In this document: piece by piece, positions 20,967-51,118 of the stretch
Position numbering within the stretch: position 1 is the stretch's first letter
How the letters are laid out: each line of letters starts with the position of its first letter
Source: Candidatus Bathyarchaeota archaeon
Lineage (GTDB): Archaea; Thermoproteota; Bathyarchaeia; Bathyarchaeales; Bathycorpusculaceae
Length of the DNA: 64,000 bases
Assembly: GCA_963772455.1 (NCBI GenBank)
Contig: CAVYXJ010000013.1
Location: 96,001-160,000, forward strand
Direction of reading: 5' to 3'
Program-made: the position numbers and the translations under genes
Notes under the pieces: generated by a model
The model's input: only the letters and a program-made list of their open reading frames with translations
Told to the model about the DNA's origin: nothing
Databases searched by the model: none

Positions 20967-22200
20967 TTACTCTCTTAATCCTAAATAATGCACTTGGTTT
21001 TCCACTTGACCGGTTTTAGCTATTTTTGTTAAATCTTCGAAGACGCGTCTTAGGTCTTTTGGACTATAATCTCTGCCGCCTAATCCAAAAATGTAATTTA
21101 CTATTATTGGGCGTTGTTTTATATCGTAGAGTGCATTTCTGACTTCGTTGAAAACTGCAGCGCCCAAACCACCTGGACTCATGCTTTTATCCATAACTGC
21201 AACAGCTTTAATGTTTTTCAGTGCATTTCTGTAGGTCTTCTGTCGGTAGCGGCCTAAAGGTGCGCAAACGTAGAACTCCAGCTTTCACACCTTCTTCTCT
21301 CAACTGGTCAACTATTACCTTTAGTGTTCCAGCGGTTGAACCTATGCAGACAATTGCGATTTCTGCGTCTTCAAGCTTGTATTCATCGATAAGTCCGTTT
21401 CCGTAGCTTCTGCCGCTGATTTTAGCATATTCAATATTGACCTCTTGTATCTTTTTTAATGCGTTACGCATGCCTTCTTCTTGTTGACGCTTAAACTCGA
21501 AATAGTAGTTCTGTAAAGCGTTGGGACCCATCGTCATGGGGTTTTCAGGGTCAAGTTTGAAAGGAACGGTTTTTCCTTCGTGGGTAAGTACCATTGGAAA
21601 TTGACGTTCGCCAACGAACTTTTTGATTTCGTCTTCTGAGAGCACATCTACTCTTTCAAGAGTGTGACTGATTGTAAAGCCATCTAAACCCACGATTATC
21701 GGCAATGATACGCCAACATCTTCAGCTATTTTGAAGGCTTGAACAATTGAGTCGTAGGCTTCTTGTGCATTTTCAACATAAATGTGAATCCATCCACTGT
21801 CTCGTTCGGCCATACTGTCGGAGTGGTCACCGTGAATGTTTAGCGGTGCAGAAAGCGCACGATTAGCTACTGCCATTACTACTGGTGCTCGTGAACCCGA
21901 TGTCACAAAAAGCATTTCATGCATTAACGCTAATCCTGCTGAGGCGCTTGCAGTAAAAGTTCTTGCTCCTGTTGCAGATGCTGCAAGGCAAGCTGTCATA
22001 GCACTGTGTTCTGATTCAGTGCAGACAAATTCAGTTAGCACTTCCCCGTTGGCGACGTATTCACTGAATTTTTCAACAATAATTGTTTGGGGAGTGATTG
22101 GGTAAGCTGCAACCACGTCAACGTCGCATTGTTTAACCGCGAAGGCAACTGCTTCGTCACCATTCATTGCCATTGTTTCTTGTTTTGGTTTTTGCGTCAT
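20967..22200 (-). CDS. porA: Pyruvate/2-oxoacid:ferredoxin oxidoreductase alpha subunit (apparent +1 frameshift near 21225)
   Basis: AYPITPQT, ESEHSA; ORFs 21208-22200 and 20967-21194 join as EDLQNALKNIKAVAVMDKSM if one A is removed. Confidence 0.9.
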
Positions 22201-22203
22201 TTC

Positions 22204-32740: not shown

Positions 32741-34018
32741 GTGCCTGCAGTGAATAGACCTGACATTAAAAGATTGCCAAAACGCTCAAACCCAATGGAT
32801 GCACAAAAGCAACTTCTTGACGCCGTCCACTCAAACTTAAATCCGAGCGAAATGGTGCAGTTGCAGAAAGCTTTAGGCAGAGTTTTAGCTCAAGATGCTA
32901 TTTCAACTGTTAACATTCCTAACTACGACAAAACTTTCATTGACGGCTACGCAATCAACTCGCAAGATACTAAGGCAGCCTCAACTACAAAACCTGCAGC
33001 CTTCAAAGTTGTCGGAAAATTATTTCCAGCAGATTACCCAACCGCATTTGAAGCTGCTCATGGTGAAGCAGTTTATGTTGCATGTGGAGCTCCAATACCC
33101 AAAGGTGCGGATTCAACAGTAAAAGTTGAGGAAACAAGGTTAAACGGCGACAAAATCGAAGTTATTCGCGAAATCACTTCAGGCGAAGGCATAATACCGC
33201 TTGGAGACGACATGAAAAAAGGCGATTTAATTCTCAAGAAGGGGCAGGTCCTAAGACCGCAGGATATTGGGGTATTAGCTTCACTGGGGATGATCATTGC
33301 TGAAGTTGCTAAAAAGCCAAAAATCGCCATTATTTCGGGCGGAGACGAACTGATCAAGCAAGCCAGCAAAGACCCAGCCAAAATCGCCAATAATTATGCC
33401 CTTGTTGTTGCTGGTTTGGCTTCCGAATTAGGGGCTGAAGCGGAAATGGTTGGGATAATGGCCGATGATTTTGAAAAAGTTACTGCAAAAATCGCTGAAG
33501 AGATTGCGGATTCAGATATCGTGGTTACAATAGGCGGGACATCAGTTGGGGTGAAAGATTTTGTTCCTGATGCTGTCAATGCGCTTGGCGATCCTGGAGT
33601 GGTTGTTCAAGGTGTTTCGTTAAGGCCAGGTGCAGTTTCAGGCTTCGGAATAGTCTGTGGCAAGCCGGTGATTATGTTGCCCGGGCATATTGGTTCTTGT
33701 ATAGCTGGGTTCTACCTTTTTGTCGCGCCCTTAATTAGCCACTACCTCGGGGATAACGGCGATGGTGTGCTTCCAAAACTGAGCGCTGAGTTAGCTGAAG
33801 ATCTGGAGACTGGTCCACAATTTCGATTCCAACTCACCCACCTAAAACAGTTTGAGGGCAAACTGTTAGCTGAACAAGTTGAAGGCGGATCAAGCGCATT
33901 AACAACTATCGTCAAATCAAACGGTTATACTATAGTGCCGCCGCATACGAGACTCGCGAAAGGGAGTCGCGTAGAAGTTTACTTATTTGGCAAACTGGAA
34001 CTTACTCAAATCATTTAA
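32741..34018 (+). CDS. moeA: Molybdopterin molybdotransferase MoeA
   Basis: GRVLAQD, DGYA, SGGDEL, GGTSVGVKD, LPG. Confidence 0.9.
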   Translation: MPAVNRPDIKRLPKRSNPMDAQKQLLDAVHSNLNPSEMVQLQKALGRVLAQDAISTVNIPNYDKTFIDGYAINSQDTKAASTTKPAAFKVVGKLFPADYPTAFEAAHGEAVYVACGAPIPKGADSTVKVEETRLNGDKIEVIREITSGEGIIPLGDDMKKGDLILKKGQVLRPQDIGVLASLGMIIAEVAKKPKIAIISGGDELIKQASKDPAKIANNYALVVAGLASELGAEAEMVGIMADDFEKVTAKIAEEIADSDIVVTIGGTSVGVKDFVPDAVNALGDPGVVVQGVSLRPGAVSGFGIVCGKPVIMLPGHIGSCIAGFYLFVAPLISHYLGDNGDGVLPKLSAELAEDLETGPQFRFQLTHLKQFEGKLLAEQVEGGSSALTTIVKSNGYTIVPPHTRLAKGSRVEVYLFGKLELTQII

Positions 34019-35107
34019 GAAACCTTGGGTGGATACCTGTGAACGTGACCGTCTTTTCCCATAACCCACGATTCACACCATGCCTTATCAGCGAATGCAC
34101 GTTCAGCCAGAAGCAGACAACGGTTGCTTTCGAAAATTTTTGACTCGACACGGTAGTTATTTGCAGCTCGTAGATAAGCTTCTTTTCCTGCAAAATCTAA
34201 CGTCGCAGCCAGTTCCGATTCCGTTTGTTTTTGTGATAGAGTAAACAAAGCTTCTCCTTGGTTTTCTTCAGCTACCCCGCTCCAAAAAAACGAATCACAA
34301 GCTTCCAAGTCGCTGGCACATTTAGCAAAGGTTTTTTGCGCTTCCAAAAGGTTGTTTTCTTGGAGCAATTTGGCTCCTTTTCTGAGAAGCTGCAAATCAG
34401 AAACCGAAAATACGCCCATGTTTAGGTGTACATTTTCTTTTACTGGTCCATATGAACGGCGGGTTTGCAGACGAGTTAGGTCTTCTTTTGAGTTTATGTT
34501 AATGAAGCTCTTTAGTTCCGGGTCGAGTGCTTTTATTTCGTTTACTGGAGAAATCAGCAAGGTTTTGCTGGCTCCTCGTGGAATATCATCTGAGCGAGGC
34601 CGTTTCAGTTGGCATAGTGTATCCGTGATTTCTAAACTACTTTGGCGTTCCAAGAACCATTATAAGGGTTTCAAGTCTGCCGTTAGGCCACATTGGAACA
34701 ACCACATCAGACTCTTCCGCTTCATTAAACATATATTCAGCAACTTTGGGCTGCAAAAAAGGCATATCGCAAGGCAAAGTTAAGCAATAATCCGCTTGAA
34801 CAGCTCTTAAACCTGACATGATTGCCACGTTTGGGCCACTTATGTGGCTAATTTTTTCGTCAATAACAATCCTGACGTTTTTAATGGCATATTGTTCTAA
34901 AGTTTTAGTATATTTCGCTTTTCGTTCCTCATCGTTTACACACACAACGATTTCATCGACAATGTCCTTGACGTTTTCCATAGCGTGGATTAAAAGAGGT
35001 TTACCGTTGAGTTCAGCTAGGGCTTTATCTCGCCAGATTGCATCTATTGTTTGGAATCTGCGAGCTTTTCCCCCTGCCAAAATGAGTGCAGCCCGTTTAG
35101 CCATCAC
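34015..35107 (-). CDS. mobA: Molybdenum cofactor guanylyltransferase MobA with C-terminal helical extension (apparent +1 frameshift near 34652)
   Basis: ILAGGKARRF, DKAL, PCDMPFL in the 5' ORF; SFININSKEDL in the 3' ORF; joined by removing one base. Confidence 0.85.
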
Positions 35108-36863: not shown

Positions 36864-37790
36864 TTAGGTTACTGTAACTCCTGAAACCCACCTAACCCAA
36901 TATTGACCCCACTTAAAATCTTCCGTTGGAACAACAAGGCGGTAAGGTTGACCGTTAACAGGTGTTAGGTAAGCGCCGTTTTCTTGGTATCCAATCAAGA
37001 TACCAAGGTCTTTGGCTTGCTGGATCGTGTATTCTCGGCTGTAACCGTCAATTGCTAACACAGTGACTTTGCTGGCGCCTTCTGAGACACCGCTGGCTTG
37101 CAGAATACTCCAAAGACTCACACCAGTCCACTCAGAAGTTCTTTGGGGTTCTCCACCTGGAGCAAGCGCTGCCTGCACAGTTATGGGTTCATAATTTGCT
37201 AAGTTGTTGCCTGTTAATACAAGTGGGTTAGAGACTGCCCCTGTAAAGTTGATTGTCCACGGTTGCAAACGGATTTCACTTACGCTTTTAACATTAAAGT
37301 TTGATGCTAACCCTGGAGTTATTAGTTTTAGTGGTCCTTCAGAAATATCAGTTATCCAGTTTCCATTCTTGGCAAACGCCAAAATTATTTCTTCACCTGA
37401 ATACTGTGTGCTGTTGTAGGCTTGATAGGTGTTTATTGTTTTGTTGAAGCCATCAGATGCAATTACGTTGATAAAGCCTGCATCCCATGAGGCACCGATG
37501 TGGTTGAGAAGCTGGAGCATTGTTACTCCGATGTAATTGGCTGTTTCGCCTTTAATTGTGCTTGTTACGTTTGTCAAGGGCATCTGGGTAAGGTCATCTA
37601 TAGTCACGGTTTTTTCTGATGCAATGTCACCTGTGATTTTGAGTTGAACCTGCGGTGGATTACCACTAGGTAAACCTAAATTGCTTTTTTGAGCTGGACC
37701 GCCTGTTAAATAATAAATGGATGCTGTTAATGCAATAATAACTACAGCTAATGTTGAAACCGCTAAAACGATTTTTCTGGTTTTATTCAA
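36864..37790 (-). CDS. Membrane-anchored tandem SUOX/Oxidored_molyb-fold protein with no Cys
   Basis: N-terminal TM; two repeats of G-V / A-x-DG(F/Y) / P(L/Y)(K/R)L / V(K/R)xV motifs. Confidence 0.78.
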   Translation of the reverse strand: MNKTRKIVLAVSTLAVVIIALTASIYYLTGGPAQKSNLGLPSGNPPQVQLKITGDIASEKTVTIDDLTQMPLTNVTSTIKGETANYIGVTMLQLLNHIGASWDAGFINVIASDGFNKTINTYQAYNSTQYSGEEIILAFAKNGNWITDISEGPLKLITPGLASNFNVKSVSEIRLQPWTINFTGAVSNPLVLTGNNLANYEPITVQAALAPGGEPQRTSEWTGVSLWSILQASGVSEGASKVTVLAIDGYSREYTIQQAKDLGILIGYQENGAYLTPVNGQPYRLVVPTEDFKWGQYWVRWVSGVTVT

Positions 37791-38957: not shown

Positions 38958-39860
38958 GTGGAGAAGCGGAAAATGGAAAGCAACAAACAAAACCAAGAAA
39001 ATGCAAATACCTACAAAATCCTCCAAAAACAGCAACTAAACCCACAAGTAAAACTTTTAAAAATCCATGCGCCAAACATAGCCCAAAAAGCCCAACCCGG
39101 ACAATTCGTTATCCTGAAAGCACACCAAAACAGCGAACGTATTCCCCTAACCTTAGCCTGCTGGGATAAACACGCCGGCACAATTACCCTCATTTTCCAA
39201 GAAGTGGGATACTCAACAATCGAACTGGGCAAACTCGAAATTGGCAACAGAATAGAAAACCTCGCCGGTCCCCTGGGAAAACCCAGTGACATCCAAAGAT
39301 ACGGCAAAGTCGCAGTTGTATGCGGAGGAGTCGGAACTGCCGTTGCGTATCCAATCGCTAAAGCCCTCAAAGAGGCCAAAAACTGCGTTGTAACCATCAT
39401 GGGCGCAAGAAACCAAGACCTCTTCATATTAACTCCCGAAATGATATCCGTGTCAAATGAATTCTACTTCACCACCGACGACGGCGCAAAAGGAACAAAA
39501 GGCTTCGTCACAGACGTTCTCAAAACCCTGCTCGGAGAAGGCTACAAATTTGACGTTGTCTTCGCGGTCGGTCCTCCAATAATGATGAGTGCAGTCGCCG
39601 AAGTCACACGACCTTTTGGCATAAAAACAATCGTAAGTTTAAACCCCATTATGGTTGACGGCATGGGCATGTGCGGAGCTTGCCGAGTATCAGTCGGCGA
39701 AACGATCCAATTTGCATGTGTAGATGGTCCAGAATTCGACGCCCACAAAGTTAATTTCAGAGAACTCGTTCAGCGGCTCAAGAGTTACTCAACAGAAGAA
39801 AAAGTCACCACTCAATGTAACGTTTTGGAAGGAGGCAATTGTAAATGTCACAACCAATGA
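38958..39860 (+). CDS. nfnA: NfnA / SudB subunit of electron-bifurcating transhydrogenase
   Basis: PGQFV, ERIPLT, GPLG, GGVG, MVDGMGMCGACRV, CVDGPEFD. Confidence 0.9.
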   Translation: MEKRKMESNKQNQENANTYKILQKQQLNPQVKLLKIHAPNIAQKAQPGQFVILKAHQNSERIPLTLACWDKHAGTITLIFQEVGYSTIELGKLEIGNRIENLAGPLGKPSDIQRYGKVAVVCGGVGTAVAYPIAKALKEAKNCVVTIMGARNQDLFILTPEMISVSNEFYFTTDDGAKGTKGFVTDVLKTLLGEGYKFDVVFAVGPPIMMSAVAEVTRPFGIKTIVSLNPIMVDGMGMCGACRVSVGETIQFACVDGPEFDAHKVNFRELVQRLKSYSTEEKVTTQCNVLEGGNCKCHNQ

Positions 39861-41305
39861 ACACCTCTAGAAATCGTTGGCAAGCTGTTGATGCAGCAAA
39901 ACAAGACCCCAGGGCACGGGCGAAAAATTTTGGAGAAGTCCTACTGGGGTATTCCGAGAAACAAGCCTTGGTTGAAGCTTCGCGGTGTTTAACATGCTCC
40001 ACAGCCCAATGCGTTTTGGGTTGTCCAGTTGGCGTTGACATTCCCGCCTTTATTAAATCCATAAAAGAAAGAAAATACAGCGAAGCCATTGCGAAAATAA
40101 GAGAAAAAAACAGTTTACCCGCAATTTGCGGTAGAGTTTGCCCGCAAGAAGAACAATGCCAAAAAAACTGCATTATGGGCAGAAAAGGCGACTCCGTTTC
40201 GATTGGTCGACTTGAACGATTTGCTGCAGATTTAGAGCTGGAAAAAGGCCAACGGTCCCATGGTAAAGTGCCTTTGAACGGCAAAAAAGTAGCAGTAGTC
40301 GGGGCAGGTCCTGCTGGCTTAACTGTTGCGGCGAATTTAGCTAAACTTGGGTATAAAGTTGTGATTTACGAAGCACTGCATGTTGCGGGCGGCGTTTTGG
40401 TCTATGGTATCCCAGAGTTTCGGTTGCCTAAACACGTTGTTCAAGCAGAAGTGAACTACGTTAGGAGTTTAGGCGTTGAATTGCAGACTGACGCGTTAAT
40501 CGGCAGATTATTCACCGTGAAGGAACTGCTGGCAAACGGGTTCGAAGCGGTTTTCATAGGCACAGGCGCAGGTCTACCAAAATTCATGGGAATACCCGGA
40601 GAAAACCTCTGCGGAATCTACTCCGCCAACGAATTCTTAATCCGCGTTAACCTAATGAAATCCTACCAGTTCCCAGAATATAAAACACCAATCCACATAG
40701 GTAAAAAAGTAGCAGTCATCGGTGGTGGGAACGTCGCTTTAGATTCAGCCCGTTGCGCGTTGCGATTGGGCGCTGAAAGAGTCGTCATTGTTTATAGACG
40801 GTCAAGGGACGAAATGCCAGCACGTGAAGAGGAAATCAGCAACGCTGAAGAAGAAGGTATAATCTTCAAGTATCTTGCTTGCCCCACCCAGTTCATTGCA
40901 GACGACAAAGGCCAAATTAAAGGCATGGAATACGTCACTATGAAACTCAGTGAACCCGACGCGTCAGGCAGAAGTAAACCCCTACCCATCAAAGGCTCTG
41001 AAGCAATTTTGGACGTTGACACTGTAATCGTCGCAATAGGACGTACCCCAAACCCCATAATCCAATCCACAACCGAAGGCCTAAAAACCCTAATTGGCGG
41101 CATCATAGAAATCAACCGAAAAACTGGGCAAACTAGCCTTGAAGCAGTCTACGCAGGCGGCGACATAGCCACGGGAGAAGCAACCGTTATCAGCGCGATG
41201 GGTTCAGGAACAATAGCAGCCAAAAGCATCGACGACCACTTAAAGAATAAACCTCAAAAAGAAAGAGAAATAGAACGCGAAATGCCTAAAAGCAAAGTGA
41301 TTTGA
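39845..41305 (+). CDS. nfnB: NfnB / SudA (GltD-like) subunit
   Basis: EASRCLTC, CGRVCPQEEQC, GAGPAG, YGIPEFRLP, GGGNVALD, AGGD. Confidence 0.9.
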   Translation: MSQPMNTSRNRWQAVDAAKQDPRARAKNFGEVLLGYSEKQALVEASRCLTCSTAQCVLGCPVGVDIPAFIKSIKERKYSEAIAKIREKNSLPAICGRVCPQEEQCQKNCIMGRKGDSVSIGRLERFAADLELEKGQRSHGKVPLNGKKVAVVGAGPAGLTVAANLAKLGYKVVIYEALHVAGGVLVYGIPEFRLPKHVVQAEVNYVRSLGVELQTDALIGRLFTVKELLANGFEAVFIGTGAGLPKFMGIPGENLCGIYSANEFLIRVNLMKSYQFPEYKTPIHIGKKVAVIGGGNVALDSARCALRLGAERVVIVYRRSRDEMPAREEEISNAEEEGIIFKYLACPTQFIADDKGQIKGMEYVTMKLSEPDASGRSKPLPIKGSEAILDVDTVIVAIGRTPNPIIQSTTEGLKTLIGGIIEINRKTGQTSLEAVYAGGDIATGEATVISAMGSGTIAAKSIDDHLKNKPQKEREIEREMPKSKVI

Positions 41306-42522: not shown

Positions 42523-43542
42523 TTATACCTCGATAACCTTCGCGTTACTAAGCACGTTAACGTTACCATTGCCCTTTGTGATGTAGCCAACTTCGAAATG
42601 CCTGACTTTCCGCTTGTCCAATTCGCTCAATAAATCATCGGCGTCCTCTTTGGCTATGGCTATTAGCATTCCACCTGCCGTTTCCTTAGCTTCACCTTGC
42701 AACAAGGGGTAACCAAAAATTTCAGTTAAAACGGGCGTGCCACGAATTACCGCCAACTGGTCAATAACGACGTCCACTTTCCCAAGTCCTGCCATATTGG
42801 CAGCGTGCCCTTTCAACCCAAAACCAGTCACGTCTGTCGCGGCGTGAACGGGAACTTTCTGCATAGCTTCAGCGACCGGTTTGTTTGAGGTAATCATTAC
42901 TTCAATAGCTTCAGCGACAGCCTCTTCAATTAACACTTCAGAAACTTCTTTTAGTACTTCTCTGCCCTCTTCTTCCTTACGCAAACGATAAGCAGCCATC
43001 GCAGGCGCAATCCCAAGAGGTTTAGTCAAAAACAAACGGTCACCAACCTGAGCCCCTTTTGTATAGACAATTTTCTCAATTTCGCTAACAGCAGTTGCCG
43101 CCCCTCCAATAATAGGCCAGGGATTCCTGATTGTATGTCCACCAACAACAGGTGCACCCATTTCGCGGCAGAAATCTCCAAACCCCTTTAGCATTCCTAC
43201 TGCCAATTCGTCTGGCATGTTTTCGGGAAACGCCATAATAGACAGAACACTGACAATGTTTGTGACTGCCAAAGCGTAGATGTCACTTGTCACGTTGCTA
43301 CCTGCGATTCTACCTTGGATTTCAGGTTCGTCAACCATGGGCGTGAAAAAATCAAGCGTATTTAGTACGGCAAGGTTGTCTGTGATTTTAACGACGCTGG
43401 AGTTTTCCCATGGACCAGCCAATACATCTGAATTAAAACTCTCTGTTAAACCTGCGTTATCGAGCAATCCGCCGAGTTGATACTGTGGAAGTTTGCAACT
43501 GCAACCGTGAACTGGAACAACTTTTGTTAATCTGTAAGTCAA
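42523..43542 (-). CDS. selD: Selenide, water dikinase (selenophosphate synthetase), Cys form
   Basis: GCSCK, TLDFFTPMVD, SDIYA, GGHT, LTKPLG, ATDVTGFGLKGH, ETAGGMLI. Confidence 0.92.
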   Translation of the reverse strand: MTYRLTKVVPVHGCSCKLPQYQLGGLLDNAGLTESFNSDVLAGPWENSSVVKITDNLAVLNTLDFFTPMVDEPEIQGRIAGSNVTSDIYALAVTNIVSVLSIMAFPENMPDELAVGMLKGFGDFCREMGAPVVGGHTIRNPWPIIGGAATAVSEIEKIVYTKGAQVGDRLFLTKPLGIAPAMAAYRLRKEEEGREVLKEVSEVLIEEAVAEAIEVMITSNKPVAEAMQKVPVHAATDVTGFGLKGHAANMAGLGKVDVVIDQLAVIRGTPVLTEIFGYPLLQGEAKETAGGMLIAIAKEDADDLLSELDKRKVRHFEVGYITKGNGNVNVLSNAKVIEV

Positions 43543-43641
43543 ATTTCATTTGCTCCAATTGTCGATATTATTCCAAATAGCACAGGGATTTATAGGTATA
43601 AAAATATTCAAACCAAAAAAAATGGAAAAGAAGAGTTTTGG

Positions 43642-44932
43642 TTACTTTCTTTTTTCTTGGATTATTTCAAGGAATGCTTCAATTCTGGTTTTTATCTGCT
43701 CGGAATCACCCATTGCATAGTCAGTTTCAATCTTTAGCATCGGCAAACTTATCGCCTTTAATGCACGGTCTACTTTGACGCCTTCAACGTTGTAGTCGTG
43801 GCAGTTCTGCAACGTGTAATAGATTACGCCTTCTGCTTTGAATTGCTTAGCCAGCTCTATTACACTTTTTATGCGTGCATCGTTGGGTGTGAAGCATGCA
43901 CAGGGTATCTGGCTGTATTTTTCAACCATAGCCCAGAGCAAATCGTTTAAGCTGTCACCTTTCGGTTCAACCAAGTTAGTAAAGTAACGTGTGCCTACGC
44001 AACTCTCCTCAACAATCACTGAAGCACCAGCCGCTTGAGCGATGCTGTGGACTTTCCAATTGGGAATCGCCATAGGGCAGCCAGAAATCATAACTCTTGG
44101 CGCATCTTTCGCTGTGACACCTATGCCTTTGTGTACCCGTTCGTCAAGTTCGTCGCAGAGTTCGTTGACTTTTGTGGTGAAGCGTTTTACGTCGTCGTTG
44201 AAGCTGATTTGGAAAATCAGTAACGCATCTAATCCGCTGATGGGCGATGGGTTGTTGGCGCGCAAGTCGGATAAACGTTTGAGGGCTTTTCGTTTGTTGT
44301 TGATTAATTCGATGGATTCTTTTAGTTTTTCGGCGGTTATTTTGTTGCCTGTAACTTCTTCAAGTTTGGTTTTGAATGCTTCAAGTTCTTTGTACCAGAA
44401 TTCTTTGCCTTGTCGTGTATCTGGTTTATGAGGAACCTCTAAAACATAGGTTGGAATAAGTTCGTTTAGTAGTTCGTAAACTTTCTTTTTGCCATCGCAG
44501 GTTGTTTCTCCAACCACAAGGTCGCTTGACTGAAAGTAGGGGCAAGTTTTGTTTAGTCTAAAGCCGTAGAACGATTTTATCAAGGGGCAGAGGTTTCTTG
44601 GCAAAATTGCTTCTGCGTCTGGAACTGAGAAGTCTGCTCCACCGCACAACCCAACCATGGTTGCGTCTGCCGCGTAAGCTAGTCTCTTCTGGCGCGTAAA
44701 TGCAGAATGCACCAATGACTTTTTTGCCTTTTGCTCTGAGGTCGTTGAGTTCTTTGATTCGTAACCCGTGGATTTCTGAGACGACAAAGTCGAAGTAACC
44801 CATTCCTTTAGGTCGGTTCTTCTGTGTTAGGTATAAGGCTCCGTAGTATTGTCCTAAGATGCCAAGGAGTTGGTTATGTTTTTCAATATCCATTCCGAGA
44901 GATTTCCACATTTCTACATATTTTTCTGCCAT
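43642..44932 (-). CDS. Double-cubane-cluster reductase / 2-hydroxyacyl-CoA dehydratase D family (apparent +1 frameshift near 44683)
   Basis: YFDFVVSEIHGLRIKEL, GAFCIYAPEE, GLCGG, NLCPLIKS, CPYF, ETTCDGKKK, GCP, EESC, PCAC, IETDY, TRIEAFLE. Confidence 0.85.
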
Positions 44933-44958
44933 AGCAATCACATGCCAATGATGAGCGT

Positions 44959-45011
44959 ATTGAAAATTCTAATTATTAAAATTATTGATAAATATTATTA
45001 GAAATATTGAT
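44959..45011. promoter_or_regulatory. Three 15-bp ATT-N9-(A/G)AT boxes, candidate LysR sites
   Basis: ATTGAAAATTCTAAT, ATTAAAATTATTGAT, ATTAGAAATATTGAT, each containing T-N11-A. Confidence 0.4.
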
Positions 45012-45016
45012 TGAGG

Positions 45017-45251
45017 CTAGCGTTTTTTAACTAAAACCTTAAACTCAGCGGCAGACTTCGAATGCTTCAACCACTTCATGACCATTATTCTTAACCCAAC
45101 GCTGAATGTTATCAAACTCCAACTCACCCTCACCAACAACCTCCAACAACTGTCCAGCAACCATCGTCTCAAGCTTACGCTTCGTAAACACCACTGGCAT
45201 GGGACACATTTTGCCCTTAACATCCAACTTTTCAATTTCCAAAAACGTCAC
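45017..45251 (-). CDS. tusA: TusA/SirA sulfur (selenium) carrier protein (apparent +1 frameshift near 45062)
   Basis: LDVKGKMCPMPVV motif; C-terminus FKVLVKKR* in the shifted frame. Confidence 0.85.
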
Positions 45252-45601
45252 TAGAACACTATTACTTTGTCACTATTAACTGTCCATTCAACGAGTTCAT
45301 GAACAGTCGCGATTTTTACCCCGTCGAAGAGGTCGGCTTGATTTAAGCCACGTGCTTCAACGCAGACCACGCAGGCTTTAACTTCGACACCGCCTTGAAT
45401 GAGATTTTCAAGATTTTGGCCGTAGTTGATTAAGCCTTGAGCGGGTTTTTGACCTTTTTTTGCGAGGTAGACACCGTTTTCGAACAGCCAGATTTTTACT
45501 TTGTGGCCTTCTATGTCGCAGGTTGCGGCGAATCGTAGAGCTGACATTGCGCGTTCTTTTGCGTATGGGGCTTCGTTTATTATTATTGTGAAGGTGACCA
45601 T
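45251..45601 (-). CDS. DsrE/TusD-like sulfur relay protein
   Basis: EAPYAKE, FENGVY, ACVVCVEARG, WTVNSDKVIVF. Confidence 0.87.
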   Translation of the reverse strand: MVTFTIIINEAPYAKERAMSALRFAATCDIEGHKVKIWLFENGVYLAKKGQKPAQGLINYGQNLENLIQGGVEVKACVVCVEARGLNQADLFDGVKIATVHELVEWTVNSDKVIVF

Positions 45602-45721
45602 ATCATCCAACCTTAATTTTCCTGATAGAGAATTATTAAAAAAACTAATATAAGCATTTTCTAAAACAAAAAGCAAATATCACAACAACCTCTAAGAAGC
45701 TTACACAGAGGCACAAAATTC

Positions 45722-46656
45722 GTGGACACCATAAGGTTCGATTACCTCAACACCTTCCTCACAGTTGCCAGAACACGCAGCTTCTCAGTGGCAGCTAAAG
45801 AACTTAAAACCAGCCAAGGCACAGTAAGCCACCATGTAGCCGCATTAGAAGAGTATTTTGACGCTGAACTCTTCAAACGCACAGCAAATGGCGTAGAAGT
45901 TACCGAAGCCGGAGCCACCCTAAAAGAAACCGCGGAAAAAATACTTCAGCAAGCCCAAGATGCAAAAACCAAAATCTCCATGGCAAAACATAATTTGTCA
46001 GGTACTATAAGAATTGCTGCAAGCACCATCCCAGAAGAACATATAATCCCAAGTTTAACCGCTGAATTCCAAAAAAAATATCCAGACGTAAAATTCAGGA
46101 TAAAAGCAGAAGATAGCCTAAACAGCCTAAGAAGCCTACAAGCTAACGACGCTGATTTTGCGGCTGTGGGTACAATTTGGGGTTTTGAAGAAAAATTCAG
46201 TTATCTCCAGATTGGTGAAGAGCAATTGGTTCTCATTGTGCCTTGTAACCACCAGTTAGCCAAACATAAAATTGTCAATCTAAACACGATCTTAACTTTC
46301 CCATTCGTAAGTCGTGAAGAAACTTCTGGAACAAGACTGGAAATCGAGCAGTTTACTGGAACAAAACAATCTCCATTCCCAGCAGTTGCGGGTGACGTTG
46401 GAGCTTGGAAGCACAGAATCAGTAATAACAGCTGTTTCAGAAGGCAGAGGCATAAGCATAATCTCCTCAATCGCCGCAACAAAAGCCCAAGCAGCAGGTT
46501 TGGCTGAAAATAGTTGCAATTGAAGAAGCAAAAAACTGTCGAAAACTCTACATCGTCAGACCAAAAAAGTCTCTTCTAAAGACATCTGAGGCTTTCTGGG
46601 AATTCTGCAAAAAATACAAATTCAAAAACGAAGCAATTACCTGCTCTTCAACTTAA
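45722..46656 (+). CDS. LysR family regulator, selenium-metabolism-associated / HrsM-like (two apparent +1 frameshifts near 46352 and 46502)
   Basis: SFSVAAKELKTSQGTVSHHVAALE HTH; AASTIPEEHIIP, REETSGTR, LGSTESV. Confidence 0.85.
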
Positions 46657-46663
46657 AACTATT

Positions 46664-46987
46664 TTACTCTTCGTCAAGTTTAACCCAGATTTTTCCCGAT
46701 TCAACCTTCCACTTAAACATGACTAGCTTCATTGACGGTGCGTCTTCGTACTCTCCAGTTTCCAAGCTGAAGCGCCAATCATGGCAAGGACAAATAATTA
46801 CCAATCCATCAAGAGATCCGCCTAAAAAGCCACATGCCATATGGGGACAACGGTTATCGATAACAAAAATTTTTCCTTGTTGCTTAATGAACAAAAGTGG
46901 TATACCCTCAAAAGGTACAAGCTTCATTTTACCTTCTTCCAATTCATTTTCATCTAAAACAGGTACAAATTCTTCTTGATTATCCAT
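46664..46987 (-). CDS. Rieske [2Fe-2S] ferredoxin
   Basis: CPH...CPCHDWRF. Confidence 0.9.
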   Translation of the reverse strand: MDNQEEFVPVLDENELEEGKMKLVPFEGIPLLFIKQQGKIFVIDNRCPHMACGFLGGSLDGLVIICPCHDWRFSLETGEYEDAPSMKLVMFKWKVESGKIWVKLDEE

Positions 46988-47193: not shown

Positions 47194-48035
47194 ATGTTCC
47201 AAATCAAATTAATGCGCCCTAAAGATTTCGTTTTTGCTGCAGAATTAGCGAATACTATGAATTGGAATATGGCAATCGAAGATTTTCAATTCTTGACTTA
47301 TCTTGAACCAGGCGGCTGTTTTGTCCTTTTTGATGATTCGCAACCCATTGGCATTGCCACATGCAATAGTTATGGCAAAGTCGGTTGGTTTGGGAATCTC
47401 ATAGTCAAAGAAGAATATCGAAGCAAAGGCGCTGGAAGCCAACTTGTGAAACACGCAATCGACTATTTACATGGCAAAGGTGTTGAAACCATCGGATTAT
47501 ACGCTTACCCAAACCTCGTTCAATTCTACAGTAACTTGGGCTTTCGATATGATGAAGATTTTTCTGTACTACATGCACCAGCTCTCAAAGTCAATGTCCG
47601 CTGAAGCTCTGTCCAGCGATAGGAGCTAAAAATATCCAGCAAATAGCGCGGTTTGACTGTAGATGCTTCGGTGGTGATAGAAGAAAACTTCTTGAATCAA
47701 TCATCCTTGAACAAGGCAACTTGAGCTATTACGTTTCTAAGGATGCCGAGATAACTGGATACGTGGCCGCTACAGTTTACGGGACAATGGCTTGGGTTGG
47801 ACCCTTGGTGTGCCAAGAAGGCAGCGTTGACGCCGTTATTACGCTGATTAAAGCGGTTCTAAGCAAGTTAACTGGTTTGAGTGTTTACGTAGCATTGCCT
47901 AAAAAAGAGATTACTATCATATCCACTCTTTCTTTGGCAGGCTTTAAAGAAGATTTTTCTGTTGCAAGAATGTTTTTAGGACCAAGTATCGCAAAAAATT
48001 GTATATACTTGGCTGAATCTCTAGAACGAGGATAA
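47194..48035 (+). CDS. Tandem GNAT acetyltransferase (two apparent +1 frameshifts near 47589 and 47612)
   Basis: VKEEYRSKGAG, FYSNLGF; second half FGGDRRKLL...VGPLVC. Confidence 0.75.
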
Positions 48036-49414: not shown

Positions 49415-49942
49415 TTGACAGCAATAGAATATGCTTTTTTTAAAATCTTGCGGTTGTTTAGAAAACTCCCTTTTAACATAATAAGTATAGGAAGCCGTAA
49501 AGTAATTTTTTCTGAGTACTTCAAAGATTTTGAAAATGTTGAGGCGGTAAAGGGCATTTTTGGAGATAAGACTCATGAAGTTTTAAGTCATCTTACAGTC
49601 GAGATTAGTTGGATTATGGGTTACATGTTCGTAGATGGTTCAGACGGGCATTTGGTTATAAGCAAAGGTTATCTTAACGAGGGTGACAAAACCGACATTT
49701 ACCTTGATTTAATTCATGAATTGTGCCATGTTAAACAGTTTATGGAAGGGCGTGAACTTTTCGACCCACGCTATGATTATGTGGAACGCCCAACGGAAAT
49801 TGAAGCTTACCGCTACTGTATTCAAGAAGCAAGAAGAATCGGACTTAGCGAAGAGAGAATTTGTTGCTATCTGAAGACTGAATGGATGAATGACCCCGAT
49901 TTCAAACGGTTGGCAAAATCTGTAGGCGTCTCATGTTTTTAA
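49415..49942 (+). CDS. Putative zincin metalloprotease-like protein
   Basis: LIHELCHVKQ (HExxH) and PTEIEAY. Confidence 0.65.
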   Translation: MTAIEYAFFKILRLFRKLPFNIISIGSRKVIFSEYFKDFENVEAVKGIFGDKTHEVLSHLTVEISWIMGYMFVDGSDGHLVISKGYLNEGDKTDIYLDLIHELCHVKQFMEGRELFDPRYDYVERPTEIEAYRYCIQEARRIGLSEERICCYLKTEWMNDPDFKRLAKSVGVSCF

Positions 49943-51118
49943 TGCTTCAAGATAAACTTTGAGCATTTTTTGACTGCAGATCTCCCAAGTAAAGTTTTTG
50001 GAGACGAACAATTGTCCATTAGAACCCATTTTTTCTCTAAGCGCCTTATCGGTGAGAAGTTTTAGTAAAGCATCTGCCAATTCATCAGTGTTTCCCTGAT
50101 TAACAAGTAAACCTGTTTCTTTATTCAGCACGGTTTCATTGACTCCGCCAATATCAAAAGCAACCACGGGTTTAGCTGAAGCCTGTGCTTCCAGAAGAAC
50201 AATTCCTTGTCCCTCCTGAATAGATGGCAAAACAAAAACATCTGCGCAATTGTAAACTTTTGGGAGCATGTCGTCTTTGAGGTTACCTATGAACCTGAAA
50301 TTACCTGAAATGTTGGCGGATTTTACTGAATCATTCAATTGGTTTTTTAGTGGTCCTTCTCCAACAATCAAAAACTTTGTGTCAGATTGGACTTTGACTA
50401 CTTTTTTAGCTGCTTCAACCAGAAAAGGGAGACCCTTCCGCGGAATCAGACTACCCACGAATAATACGCATGGTTCATTGCCTAAACCAAATTGTTGCCT
50501 TACCGTTTTATTATCCATAGGCTTGAATTTTTCTATGTCAACACCGTTTGGAACAATCCGAACCTTACTCTGCTCAATCCCATAATATTTCTGAATTTTT
50601 TCAAGGGAATAAGTGCTGATTGTAACAACTATTGTAGCGTCTTTGGCTGTTTCCTCTTCCAGTTTTGAGAGCTTTTCCATAAAATAGTTTGCAGCCCAGC
50701 CTCTAATCGAAGGATAGCCGTTTTTCTTTGCTTGCTCATATTCATCGGCCAGAACGCCATGAATTGTATGGATGAATGGCTTCTTTATTCTCTGTTTCTT
50801 AAGTGATTTAGGAAATCCATATCCACTTACAGCGTGAGCTTCGTAGACATCCGCATTGATTGCGTTGGCTTTCTTGTTGAGGCTTCGGTTGAAAAACCAA
50901 TTATCTACAGGGAAAAGAATATCTGTAGAATAACAAGGAACAAATTTCACTCCATTCATGCTGGTGGGATTTTTAAAACTAGCTTTAGTACCGCTATAAA
51001 CCGTAATATCTGATTGGTTTTGTATCCGCTTGGTAGTTTCCATTATGCGTCGCTCAACACCCCCAAAATACAGATGAGGTGGTTGGGTATTGAAGACGGC
51101 TAGCGAAAACTTCTCCAT
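49931..51118 (-). CDS. Glycosyltransferase family 4
   Basis: GGVE, HTIHG, VPNGVD, EGQGIVLLEAQA. Confidence 0.92.
   Translation of the reverse strand: MEKFSLAVFNTQPPHLYFGGVERRIMETTKRIQNQSDITVYSGTKASFKNPTSMNGVKFVPCYSTDILFPVDNWFFNRSLNKKANAINADVYEAHAVSGYGFPKSLKKQRIKKPFIHTIHGVLADEYEQAKKNGYPSIRGWAANYFMEKLSKLEEETAKDATIVVTISTYSLEKIQKYYGIEQSKVRIVPNGVDIEKFKPMDNKTVRQQFGLGNEPCVLFVGSLIPRKGLPFLVEAAKKVVKVQSDTKFLIVGEGPLKNQLNDSVKSANISGNFRFIGNLKDDMLPKVYNCADVFVLPSIQEGQGIVLLEAQASAKPVVAFDIGGVNETVLNKETGLLVNQGNTDELADALLKLLTDKALREKMGSNGQLFVSKNFTWEICSQKMLKVYLEALKT

Follow-up and report, generated by a model that had tools for sequence, protein, structure and literature searches.

A selenophosphate synthetase cassette in a Bathyarchaeia genus largely without selenocysteine machinery: a candidate archaeal selenium system

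The locus described here is part of a stretch of 64,000 nucleotides, hereafter the window, which covers positions 96,001 to 160,000 of contig CAVYXJ010000013.1 in assembly GCA_963772455.1 of a Candidatus Bathyarchaeota archaeon from soil. It contains a cassette with selD, the gene of selenophosphate synthetase (SelD). The genes of a DsrE-like carrier, TusA, a double-cubane cluster protein (DCCP) and a Cys-type SelD are all found on the minus strand, opposite a divergent LysR gene, and this arrangement, proposed in an initial annotation, was confirmed. The source genome (G000) comprises 2.45 Mb in 24 contigs and is 92% complete. The features of the locus are the following.

42523..43542, minus strand: selD, selenophosphate synthetase, Cys form (339 amino acids, TTG start; AIRS N- and C-terminal domains)
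43642..44941, minus strand: gene of the cassette-type DCCP (model NF040772), frame broken by an extra base at 44684
~45017..45251, minus strand: tusA (Pfam TusA 59.9 bits; about 77 amino acids in relatives; last residues shifted)
45251..45601, minus strand: gene of a DsrE-like carrier with a CxxC motif (Pfam DsrE 79.6 bits; its stop overlaps the tusA start)
45602..45721, no strand: predicted control region between the divergent lysR and dsrE (TATA-like core; palindrome ATTA-N7/8-TAAT)
45722..~46656, plus strand: selenium-type LysR regulator (LysR_Se / HrsM-like; best match NF040786), frame broken by two extra bases
46664..46987, minus strand: small Rieske [2Fe-2S] protein (Pfam Rieske 65.5 bits), a frequent neighbour and possible electron carrier

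SelD is single-copy in the source genome. It exceeds the cut-offs of two models, with 332 bits on the archaeal SelD model NF010705 (291 required) and 237.8 bits on TIGR00476 (125 required). Its N-terminal HGCSCK satisfies the catalytic G-[U/C]-x-C-K motif. The same letters, GCSCKLPQ, are found in the Cys-type Leishmania selenophosphate synthetase (SPS) chain 5l16, and the first cysteine of the motif aligns with the selenocysteine (Sec, U) of a congener, G199 (HGUSCK). The protein is a predicted selenide, water dikinase. On NF040772 (cut-off 350) the 381-amino-acid fragment of the DCCP alone scores 457 bits and the intact orthologue of a relative, G201, 496 bits; all seven motif cysteines (positions 80, 99, 118, 148, 314, 347 and 380 in G201) are encoded in the window. 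We know of no physiological substrate of double-cubane proteins. The CPxP cysteine of TusA and the C-x-x-C of DsrE are each invariant in 26 of 26 aligned sequences, the latter including a Chloroflexi homologue that reads CGVC. The best NCBIfam models for TusA are those of YedF, yet the scores are under the cut-offs, and DsrE scores best on TusD models. On NF040786 (cut-off 250) the broken LysR copy of the window reaches 178 bits and the intact G201 orthologue 257.6 bits. The intact products in G201 measure 432 (DCCP), 77 (TusA), about 114 (DsrE) and 310 (LysR) amino acids. The TATA-like core and the palindrome between lysR and dsrE are kept in 18 of 18 aligned loci and form a putative LysR box or promoter.

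The gene identities given in the initial annotation were correct, but the breaks in DCCP, LysR and the TusA tail went unnoticed there. Compared with three relatives (G201, L043 and G152), the DCCP gene is split by a one-base insertion at 44684, the tail of TusA is frameshifted by one at about 45061, and lysR is split by two, at about 46350 and 46505. The neighbouring GNAT gene is broken too, by an extra base at about 47591-47619. The extra bases are single, none is inside a homopolymer, and all are unique to this assembly. There is no build-up of stop codons past the breaks, and the amino acid identity to the relatives is 94-96%. Contigs from four public soil runs, 90-99% like the window, were compared as well: the extra base at 44683/4 is absent from every covering contig in all four runs, and those at 45061, 46349 and 46505 are absent from most covering contigs. 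When the source reads were sought among public runs, none matched more than 0.17 of the sampled words. Two further genes of the window are split over two frames, PorA (20967-22203, break at about 21250), the C-terminal part of which continues in another frame, and MobA (34015-35107, break at about 34650), which is a single open reading frame (ORF) in the relative G038. As both are single ORFs in relatives, these splits point to scattered single-base assembly errors. Since the three relatives and the public contigs lack the extra bases, and PorA and MobA are broken too, the frame breaks in the cassette are probably consensus errors of this assembly, with roughly four chances in five. A programmed frameshift or a pseudogene in DCCP or LysR was set aside by judgement in favour of assembly error, the extra bases being outside homopolymers and confined to this assembly.

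SelD is an orphan here by all traits tested, because no Sec, SelU, YqeBC, XDH-family or SenB trait was found in the source genome. Neither SepSecS nor PSTK had a match in it, no tRNA-Sec was present among the 39 tRNAs found by ARAGORN, and a tblastn search for remnants of Sec genes with Bathyarchaeia SepSecS and PSTK-SelB queries returned general GTPases only. SelU (TIGR03167, a profile that was positive in the control, M. jannaschii) had no match in the source genome and was found in none of 61 genomes in a survey of the genus, the source genome included. YqeB and YqeC were likewise without a match in the source genome, YqeC also in all 61 congeners, and the XDH-family domain that binds molybdenum cofactor (Moco; PF02738) had no match in the source genome. 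For TIGR04348, which we take to be the SenB model, the best match was 45.9 bits against a cut-off of 300 and fell on generic GT4 enzymes; SenA and OvsA were not searched for. The GT4 glycosyltransferase at 49931-51118 was rejected as a SenB-like selenosugar synthase, with 37.9 bits against 300 and with retention in SelD-negative congeners. The FwdB ORF in the window runs for 519 amino acids with no interruption. The candidate non-Sec selenium system proposed in the initial annotation thus stands, since Sec, SelU and YqeBC machinery that would explain SelD is absent from the genome and from most of the genus, and since the linkage of the cassette genes is conserved. An ORF at positions 1-783 (C13:95794-96741), which runs off the start of the window, has weak identity (22-26%) to the Bathyarchaeia SelB GTPase and later domains, and may be one of the SelB-like factors that have been described in Sec-less archaea.

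The genus survey shows how SelD and the DCCP are distributed. SelD, counted as present at E<=1e-40, was found in 40 of the 61 genomes (37 above the model cut-off), and SepSecS in four (G199, G183, G193 and G200). A Sec marker is missing from 36 SelD-positive genomes, among them the single-contig G163 and G198. The cassette-type DCCP, which scores 480-511 bits on NF040772 where intact, is encoded 80-129 nucleotides upstream of the selD match and on the same strand in 21 genomes. These include the source genome, two with a broken DCCP (G175 and G165) and two with a broken selD (G191, and G190 in one of its two copies). Together with G199, 22 genomes hold a cassette-type DCCP, and 22 of 22 are SelD-positive. 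Only one of the 21 SelD-negative genomes (G166, 88% complete in about 210 contigs) has a DCCP above the cut-off, and it is of a second subtype. At least 14 SelD-positive genomes have no cassette DCCP, including the closed G198 and the 100%-complete G038. The pattern is therefore nested: the cassette DCCP is found only with SelD, and SelD also without the DCCP. The regulator follows a similar course, with LysR_Se (NF040786) above the cut-off in 16 of the 61 genomes and at 197-249 bits in 11 more; 25 of these 27 genomes with a strong match are SelD-positive. A clean insertion scar could not be defined in the SelD-negative genomes, where the neighbourhood differs (CbbQ/VWA, DNA polymerase B, peptidase A4, DnaK).

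The second DCCP subtype has 48-50% identity to the cassette type and all seven cysteines, and occurs away from selD in G166, G102 and G156. A third subtype, with 330-348 bits and asparagine in place of the second motif cysteine, is present in almost every congener, whether SelD-positive or not. In the source genome it lies on another contig (C11:58861-65180, locus L132:4861-11180), where a DsbD-like membrane protein, a NapH-like polyferredoxin, the DCCP paralogue, two activases, a ferredoxin and then a sulfite-oxidase-like Moco protein are encoded. Proteins with a Moco domain of the sulfite-oxidase family are found near both DCCP loci of the genome (window 36864-37790 and C11:64368-65180). The two activase genes behind the paralogue are the only BcrAD_BadFG matches genome-wide. 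The absence of the usual ATP-dependent activase partner, noted earlier for the window, thus holds for the window but not for the genome.

The order DsrE-TusA-DCCP-SelD was found in 14 of 14 loci with a cassette DCCP that were read in detail. LysR is divergent and adjacent in 13 of them and displaced by 3 kb in G158, and the same order with LysR in front of DsrE occurs in four further Bathyarchaeia records. The seven SelD-only loci (G198, G167, G178, G162, G186, G038 and G156) all read DsrE-TusA-SelD with no cassette DCCP, and LysR is adjacent in three. In all, DsrE-TusA is linked to selD in 22 of 22 cassette loci that were read closely. DsrE-TusA-SelD thus forms the constant core, into which a DCCP gene is optionally inserted after tusA and before selD. 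Because the DCCP is missing from all seven SelD-only loci, it is unlikely that SelD serves this DCCP alone. In the Sec-positive G199 the cassette reads LysR, then DsrE-TusA-DCCP-activase (L127:8594-12445); the activase occupies the place of selD, and a Sec-form selD sits in a Sec operon 1.5 Mb away. This arrangement is consistent with a supply module for SelD, whatever the location of the SelD gene. A second TusA-like gene with 37% identity lies in a 3-kb insert between LysR and dsrE in G158 (L026:12868-13029) and G198 (L037:12851-13012).

In a wider survey of 151 Bathyarchaeia genomes, true SelD was present in ten. All six sampled members of the genus have the Cys form, as does G064, and an in-frame TGA is found in G110, G103 and G037. 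The Sec-form selD of these three genomes stands beside SepSecS and a PSTK-SelB fusion of about 730 amino acids (L021:6752-13601 in G103; also L020, L022 and L042). The accessible text of PMC9499178, citing Mukai et al. 2017, already describes this fusion in Bathyarchaeota. In G103, which belongs to another Bathyarchaeia family, selD is also followed by a DCCP of the second subtype and an activase. This pairing, like the bacterial DCCP-SelD clusters described below, is an independent recurrence of the association. The Cys-form selD of G064 (L019:5276-10994) lies between transposase/integrase genes and an ArsM/CpaM-like methyltransferase gene, surroundings that hint at mobility and perhaps at selenium methylation.

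Beside the cassette, the Rieske gene adjoins in 14 of the 21 genus loci, and in five of five SelD-negative genomes it is not beside the GNAT-hyp453 pair; its membership in the module is uncertain. GNAT, hyp453 and hyp175 were ruled out as members, as they stand side by side in all five of those SelD-negative genomes. NfnAB-like (sulfide dehydrogenase-like) genes are found a few kb from selD both in the window (38958-41305) and in G110, of another family (L020:12111-14382). NfnB has sub-threshold matches to the models 'putative selenate reductase YgfK' and 'dicluster near Sec'.

Codon alignments were made of the unaltered loci, with hits below 90% query coverage, sequences with stops and saturated pairs excluded. 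They gave approximate median dN/dS ratios of 0.056 for SelD (21 sequences; 86 of 210 pairs finite), 0.081 for DCCP (14 sequences; 67 of 91 pairs), 0.10 for TusA (19 sequences; 91 of 171 pairs), 0.075 for DsrE (21 sequences; 168 of 210 pairs) and 0.107 for LysR (17 sequences; 71 of 136 pairs). For comparison, the median for NfnB was 0.092 (nine sequences; 19 of 36 pairs). The cassette is maintained by strong purifying selection in species without Sec. When the SelD dimer of the window was docked with TusA, the score was 0.54 against 0.01 for the best control; three runs shared at least 91% of contacts, with a predicted local distance difference test (pLDDT) value of at least 80 for the partner. 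Of 78 solved complexes 51 attain the mark used, as do 2 of 108 mismatched pairs, and scores of 0.60 or less are those of only five of the 78 solved complexes and of all four mismatches, among 180, that passed, so that the model lends weak support to a contact between SelD and TusA.

Several known systems resemble the cassette. The DCCP and DCCP-R of Carboxydothermus hydrogenoformans, reportedly treated by Jeoung and Dobbek in 2018, offer one comparison: the protein of the window matches the same family model, has the seven cluster cysteines of a Carboxydothermus islandicus homologue and shares its genome with the activase family, whereas here the activase is beside a paralogue on another contig and the DCCP gene sits between tusA and selD. 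The TusA-DsrEFH/TusBCD sulfur relay likewise has two carrier folds with conserved cysteines side by side. Unlike it, the cassette has a single DsrE-type gene with CxxC and no DsrEFH trio, and is tied to selD and a selenium regulator rather than to dsr or tRNA thiolation genes.

The closest likeness is to selenium genes of bacteria. YedF joins TusA to a DsrE-like domain with CGXC and is reported absent from archaea in the accessible text of Lin et al. 2015. The same text defines the LysR_Se subfamily, with HrsM in archaea, and places it almost only in Sec-decoding organisms. The parallels drawn in the initial annotation, of TusA plus DsrE with YedF and of the regulator with the selenium-linked HrsM/LysR_Se, agree with this account as far as it is accessible. 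The cassette proteins and YedF (TIGR03527 / NF008242) have the same domains, with CPxP in the TusA part and CxxC in the DsrE part, and are both linked to selD; here, though, there are two polypeptides, dsrE comes first and tusA second, and the scores are under the YedF cut-offs. The intact LysR orthologue passes NF040786 and is divergent from selenium genes as in Sec users, but here it tracks SelD in genomes without Sec.

Among the 79 DCCP loci closest to that of the cassette, one genome being taken per species, 72 are bacterial. An activase match was found in 65 of these 72 stretches, nearly always directly downstream, and SelD within 7 kb in seven: two Chloroflexota, one Thermodesulfovibrionales, one Actinomycetota, two of Desulfobacterota type and one unclassified. 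A divergent LysR is present in three of the seven, with LysR matches weaker than E=1e-15 discarded, and DsrE or TusA in one or two. No orphan SelD was found among these clusters; SelA is present in seven of seven genomes, and selenocysteine therefore explains the bacterial SelD. The accessible part of the literature adds further cases. Table 1 of Lin et al. 2015 shows, for Slackia, an activase and a 2-hydroxyglutaryl-CoA dehydratase subunit as partners of LysR, YedE and YedF, and a figure legend of Kountz & Balskus 2023 shows DCCP, DCCPR, selD and selR around methylselenide clusters. Common to the bacterial selenium islands and the cassette are thus a DCCP that passes NF040772, SelD, a carrier of TusA/DsrE type and a divergent LysR of selenium type. 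The cassette differs from them in being archaeal, in its split YedF with the order DsrE-TusA, in having no activase and in a host without Sec, selenouridine (SeU), YqeBC or SenB.

Orphan SelD organisms have been noted before, four bacteria and one archaeon in the accessible text of Lin et al. 2015, and like the present genome they have SelD without Sec and SeU systems. The early cases were explained, in what is accessible of Haft & Self 2008 and Zhang et al. 2008, by the YqeB/YqeC trait of selenium-dependent molybdenum hydroxylases; here, in contrast, neither that trait nor the selenoneine marker SenB was found. A literature search, which did not extend to the supplementary tables of Haft & Gwadz and Lin et al., returned nothing about an orphan SelD or the present cassette in Bathyarchaeia; those tables may list archaeal cases. 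The words 'orphan', 'cubane', 'Bathyarchae' and 'YedF' do not occur in the accessible text of a 2026 review of prokaryotic selenoproteomes.

The reading preferred here, with a probability of about 0.45, is that the cassette may be an archaeal version of the bacterial 'selenium island', an operon under a regulator of LysR_Se type that would mobilise selenium and make selenophosphate for an acceptor that is none of the known ones. DsrE (CxxC) and TusA (CPxP), the content of YedF in two genes, would carry selenium on their cysteines. The cassette DCCP would be an optional add-on, powered by the ATP-dependent activases of contig C11, which works at very low potential to reduce selenium, whether carrier-bound, elemental or organic, to selenide. 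The Cys-type SelD would then convert selenide and ATP to selenophosphate, and the acceptor would lie outside the cassette. The strongly negative potential of the Se(0)/HSe- couple would make sense of an ATP-driven low-potential reductase. A supply line is suggested by the nested pattern, the carriers with reactive cysteines, the selenium-type regulator and the cassette of G199. As SelD, carriers, regulator and reductase are kept without any known selenium use, selenium is probably used outside the known ways. The analysis shows the identities of the genes, their conservation, co-occurrence and purifying selection, and that the known selenium traits are absent; we infer selenium rather than sulfur as the cargo, a place of the DCCP upstream of SelD in the flow, the use of the C11 activases and a novel acceptor.

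Several observations weigh against a supply line of this kind. No acceptor of selenophosphate was found, and a supply line without a client is incomplete. The cassette DCCP of this genus has no activase of its own, whereas that of G199 has one, and use of the C11 activases is assumed. The occurrence of the cassette DCCP only where SelD is present fits equally well with the DCCP as a client of selenium. On the YedF models the intact TusA reaches 50.6 bits where 79 are required and 38.3 where 110 are, and DsrE reaches only 15.6 bits (E=0.011), under the cut-off, on the C-terminal part of a YedF model. The surveyed genomes are kin within one genus, so a conserved gene order among them is weak evidence of coupling. 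Truncation or splitting affects five of the 40 selD copies (those of G191, G193, G194 and G165, and one of the pair in G190), which points to gene loss under way in some lineages. The values of dS are 1.5-1.8, near saturation, and only the 86 of 210 SelD pairs are finite, so the dN/dS ratios are approximate, though the low dN is clear all the same. Finally, the frameshifts may be real in this strain.

A doubtful alternative is that the cassette DCCP is itself the client, selenophosphate being used to build a selenium-bridged analogue of its [8Fe-9S] cluster with DsrE and TusA aiding delivery. Selenium in the double-cubane cluster was suggested in the initial annotation; the idea is kept here but is already in print. 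Haft & Gwadz (bioRxiv 2022 / J Bacteriol 2023), who built NF040772, name a selenium-bridged double-cubane cluster as a 'formal possibility' in the accessible text, and find 955 of 970 DCCPs above 400 bits in SelD-positive assemblies. The rule holds here without the confounder of Sec, in 22 of 22 cassette-DCCP genomes. The gene is directly upstream of selD in 21 genomes, the paralogue of 330-348 bits, in which the second motif cysteine is missing, occurs in SelD-positive and SelD-negative genomes alike, and no other client was detected among the traits searched. However, the DCCP cluster cannot be the sole client, as the SelD-positive genomes without a cassette DCCP, at least 14, keep DsrE-TusA-SelD under purifying selection. 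The cassette of G199 has an activase and no selD, and supply routes typically employ cysteine carrier proteins. The literature searches made here turned up no structure or analysis that shows selenium in any DCCP.

It is improbable that selenophosphate serves the neighbouring Mo/W cofactor system instead, for example as the source of a selenido ligand on the W/Mo-bis-pyranopterin guanine dinucleotide (bisPGD) of formylmethanofuran dehydrogenase or of another Mo/W enzyme, bypassing YqeB/YqeC and with TusA/DsrE and FdhD as carriers. With the DCCP cluster, this system is one of the two foremost candidates for the acceptor: ModE-like, Mo/W transport, MobB, MobA, MoeA, FdhD and Fwd genes are beside the cassette in the window, and ModE-like or Mob/MoeA/FdhD genes are within 10 kb of it in 15 of 21 genus loci. 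In G038 selD is directly followed by ModE-like-ModABC-MobB-MobA on the same strand, and FdhD adjoins the Sec/SelD cluster in G110, of another family. In E. coli, TusA has an effect on Moco biosynthesis. The genus loci may, however, reflect a single inherited arrangement, and no YqeB, YqeC or XDH-family domain is present. Bacterial cassettes were not seen with Mo genes, though no screen for Mo genes was made, and we know of no bisPGD enzyme that takes selenium except as Sec.

A pure relic and a role in sulfur alone are both unlikely. A decaying, functionless remnant of a lost selenocysteine system, with real frameshifts in DCCP, LysR and TusA, is a far-fetched reading. It would account for Sec machinery left in only four of 61 congeners, for the Sec of the G199 SelD where cysteine stands here, for the five broken selD copies and the broken DCCP of G175 and G165, and for the four frame-breaking insertions within the cassette of this assembly. 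It is contradicted by dN/dS of 0.06-0.11 across species with dS above 1.5, by 35 of 40 intact selD copies, by the absence of the insertions from three relatives and from contigs 98-99% identical, by the housekeeping PorA broken alike, and by the lack of stop codons downstream of the breaks. A sulfur-handling module, with sulfide as the substrate activated by SelD or with a relay towards thiolation of tRNA or cofactors, is very improbable, for although TusA and DsrE belong to families best known as sulfur carriers (DsrE with its TusD scores), no selenium client was found and PMC4210487, in its accessible text, proposes that hyperthermophilic archaea have a SelD-like family that acts in sulfur metabolism, SelD has 332 bits on the true SelD model against 38 bits on the SelD-related sulfur family NF038049 (cut-off 250) and the catalytic motif of Cys-type SPS enzymes, its G199 orthologue is a selenoprotein inside a Sec operon, and the intact regulator passes the selenium-LysR model.

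The association of DCCP, SelD, YedF and LysR_Se genes is already known for bacteria (Haft & Gwadz; Lin et al.); what is new is the archaeal form with a split YedF, no activase and an orphan SelD. The near-perfect co-occurrence of DCCP and SelD in bacteria is confounded by selenocysteine use. The genus offers a natural experiment in this respect, with dozens of species that have SelD and the cassette DCCP, SelD alone or neither, nearly all without Sec, SeU or YqeBC. The selenophosphate might feed a use beyond selenocysteine, selenouridine, the selenium-molybdenum cofactor of YqeBC, selenoneine and ovoselenol, in the boldest form a cassette DCCP with a selenium-bridged [8Fe-8S-Se] cluster. This proposal is rather unlikely, but if true the genus would be the first place where selenium dependence of a DCCP is seen free of the selenocysteine confounder. 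Two questions, what an orphan SelD supplies and what double-cubane reductases do, become testable with a few small genes, and YedF-like carriers and LysR_Se regulators are extended to archaea that do not decode selenocysteine.

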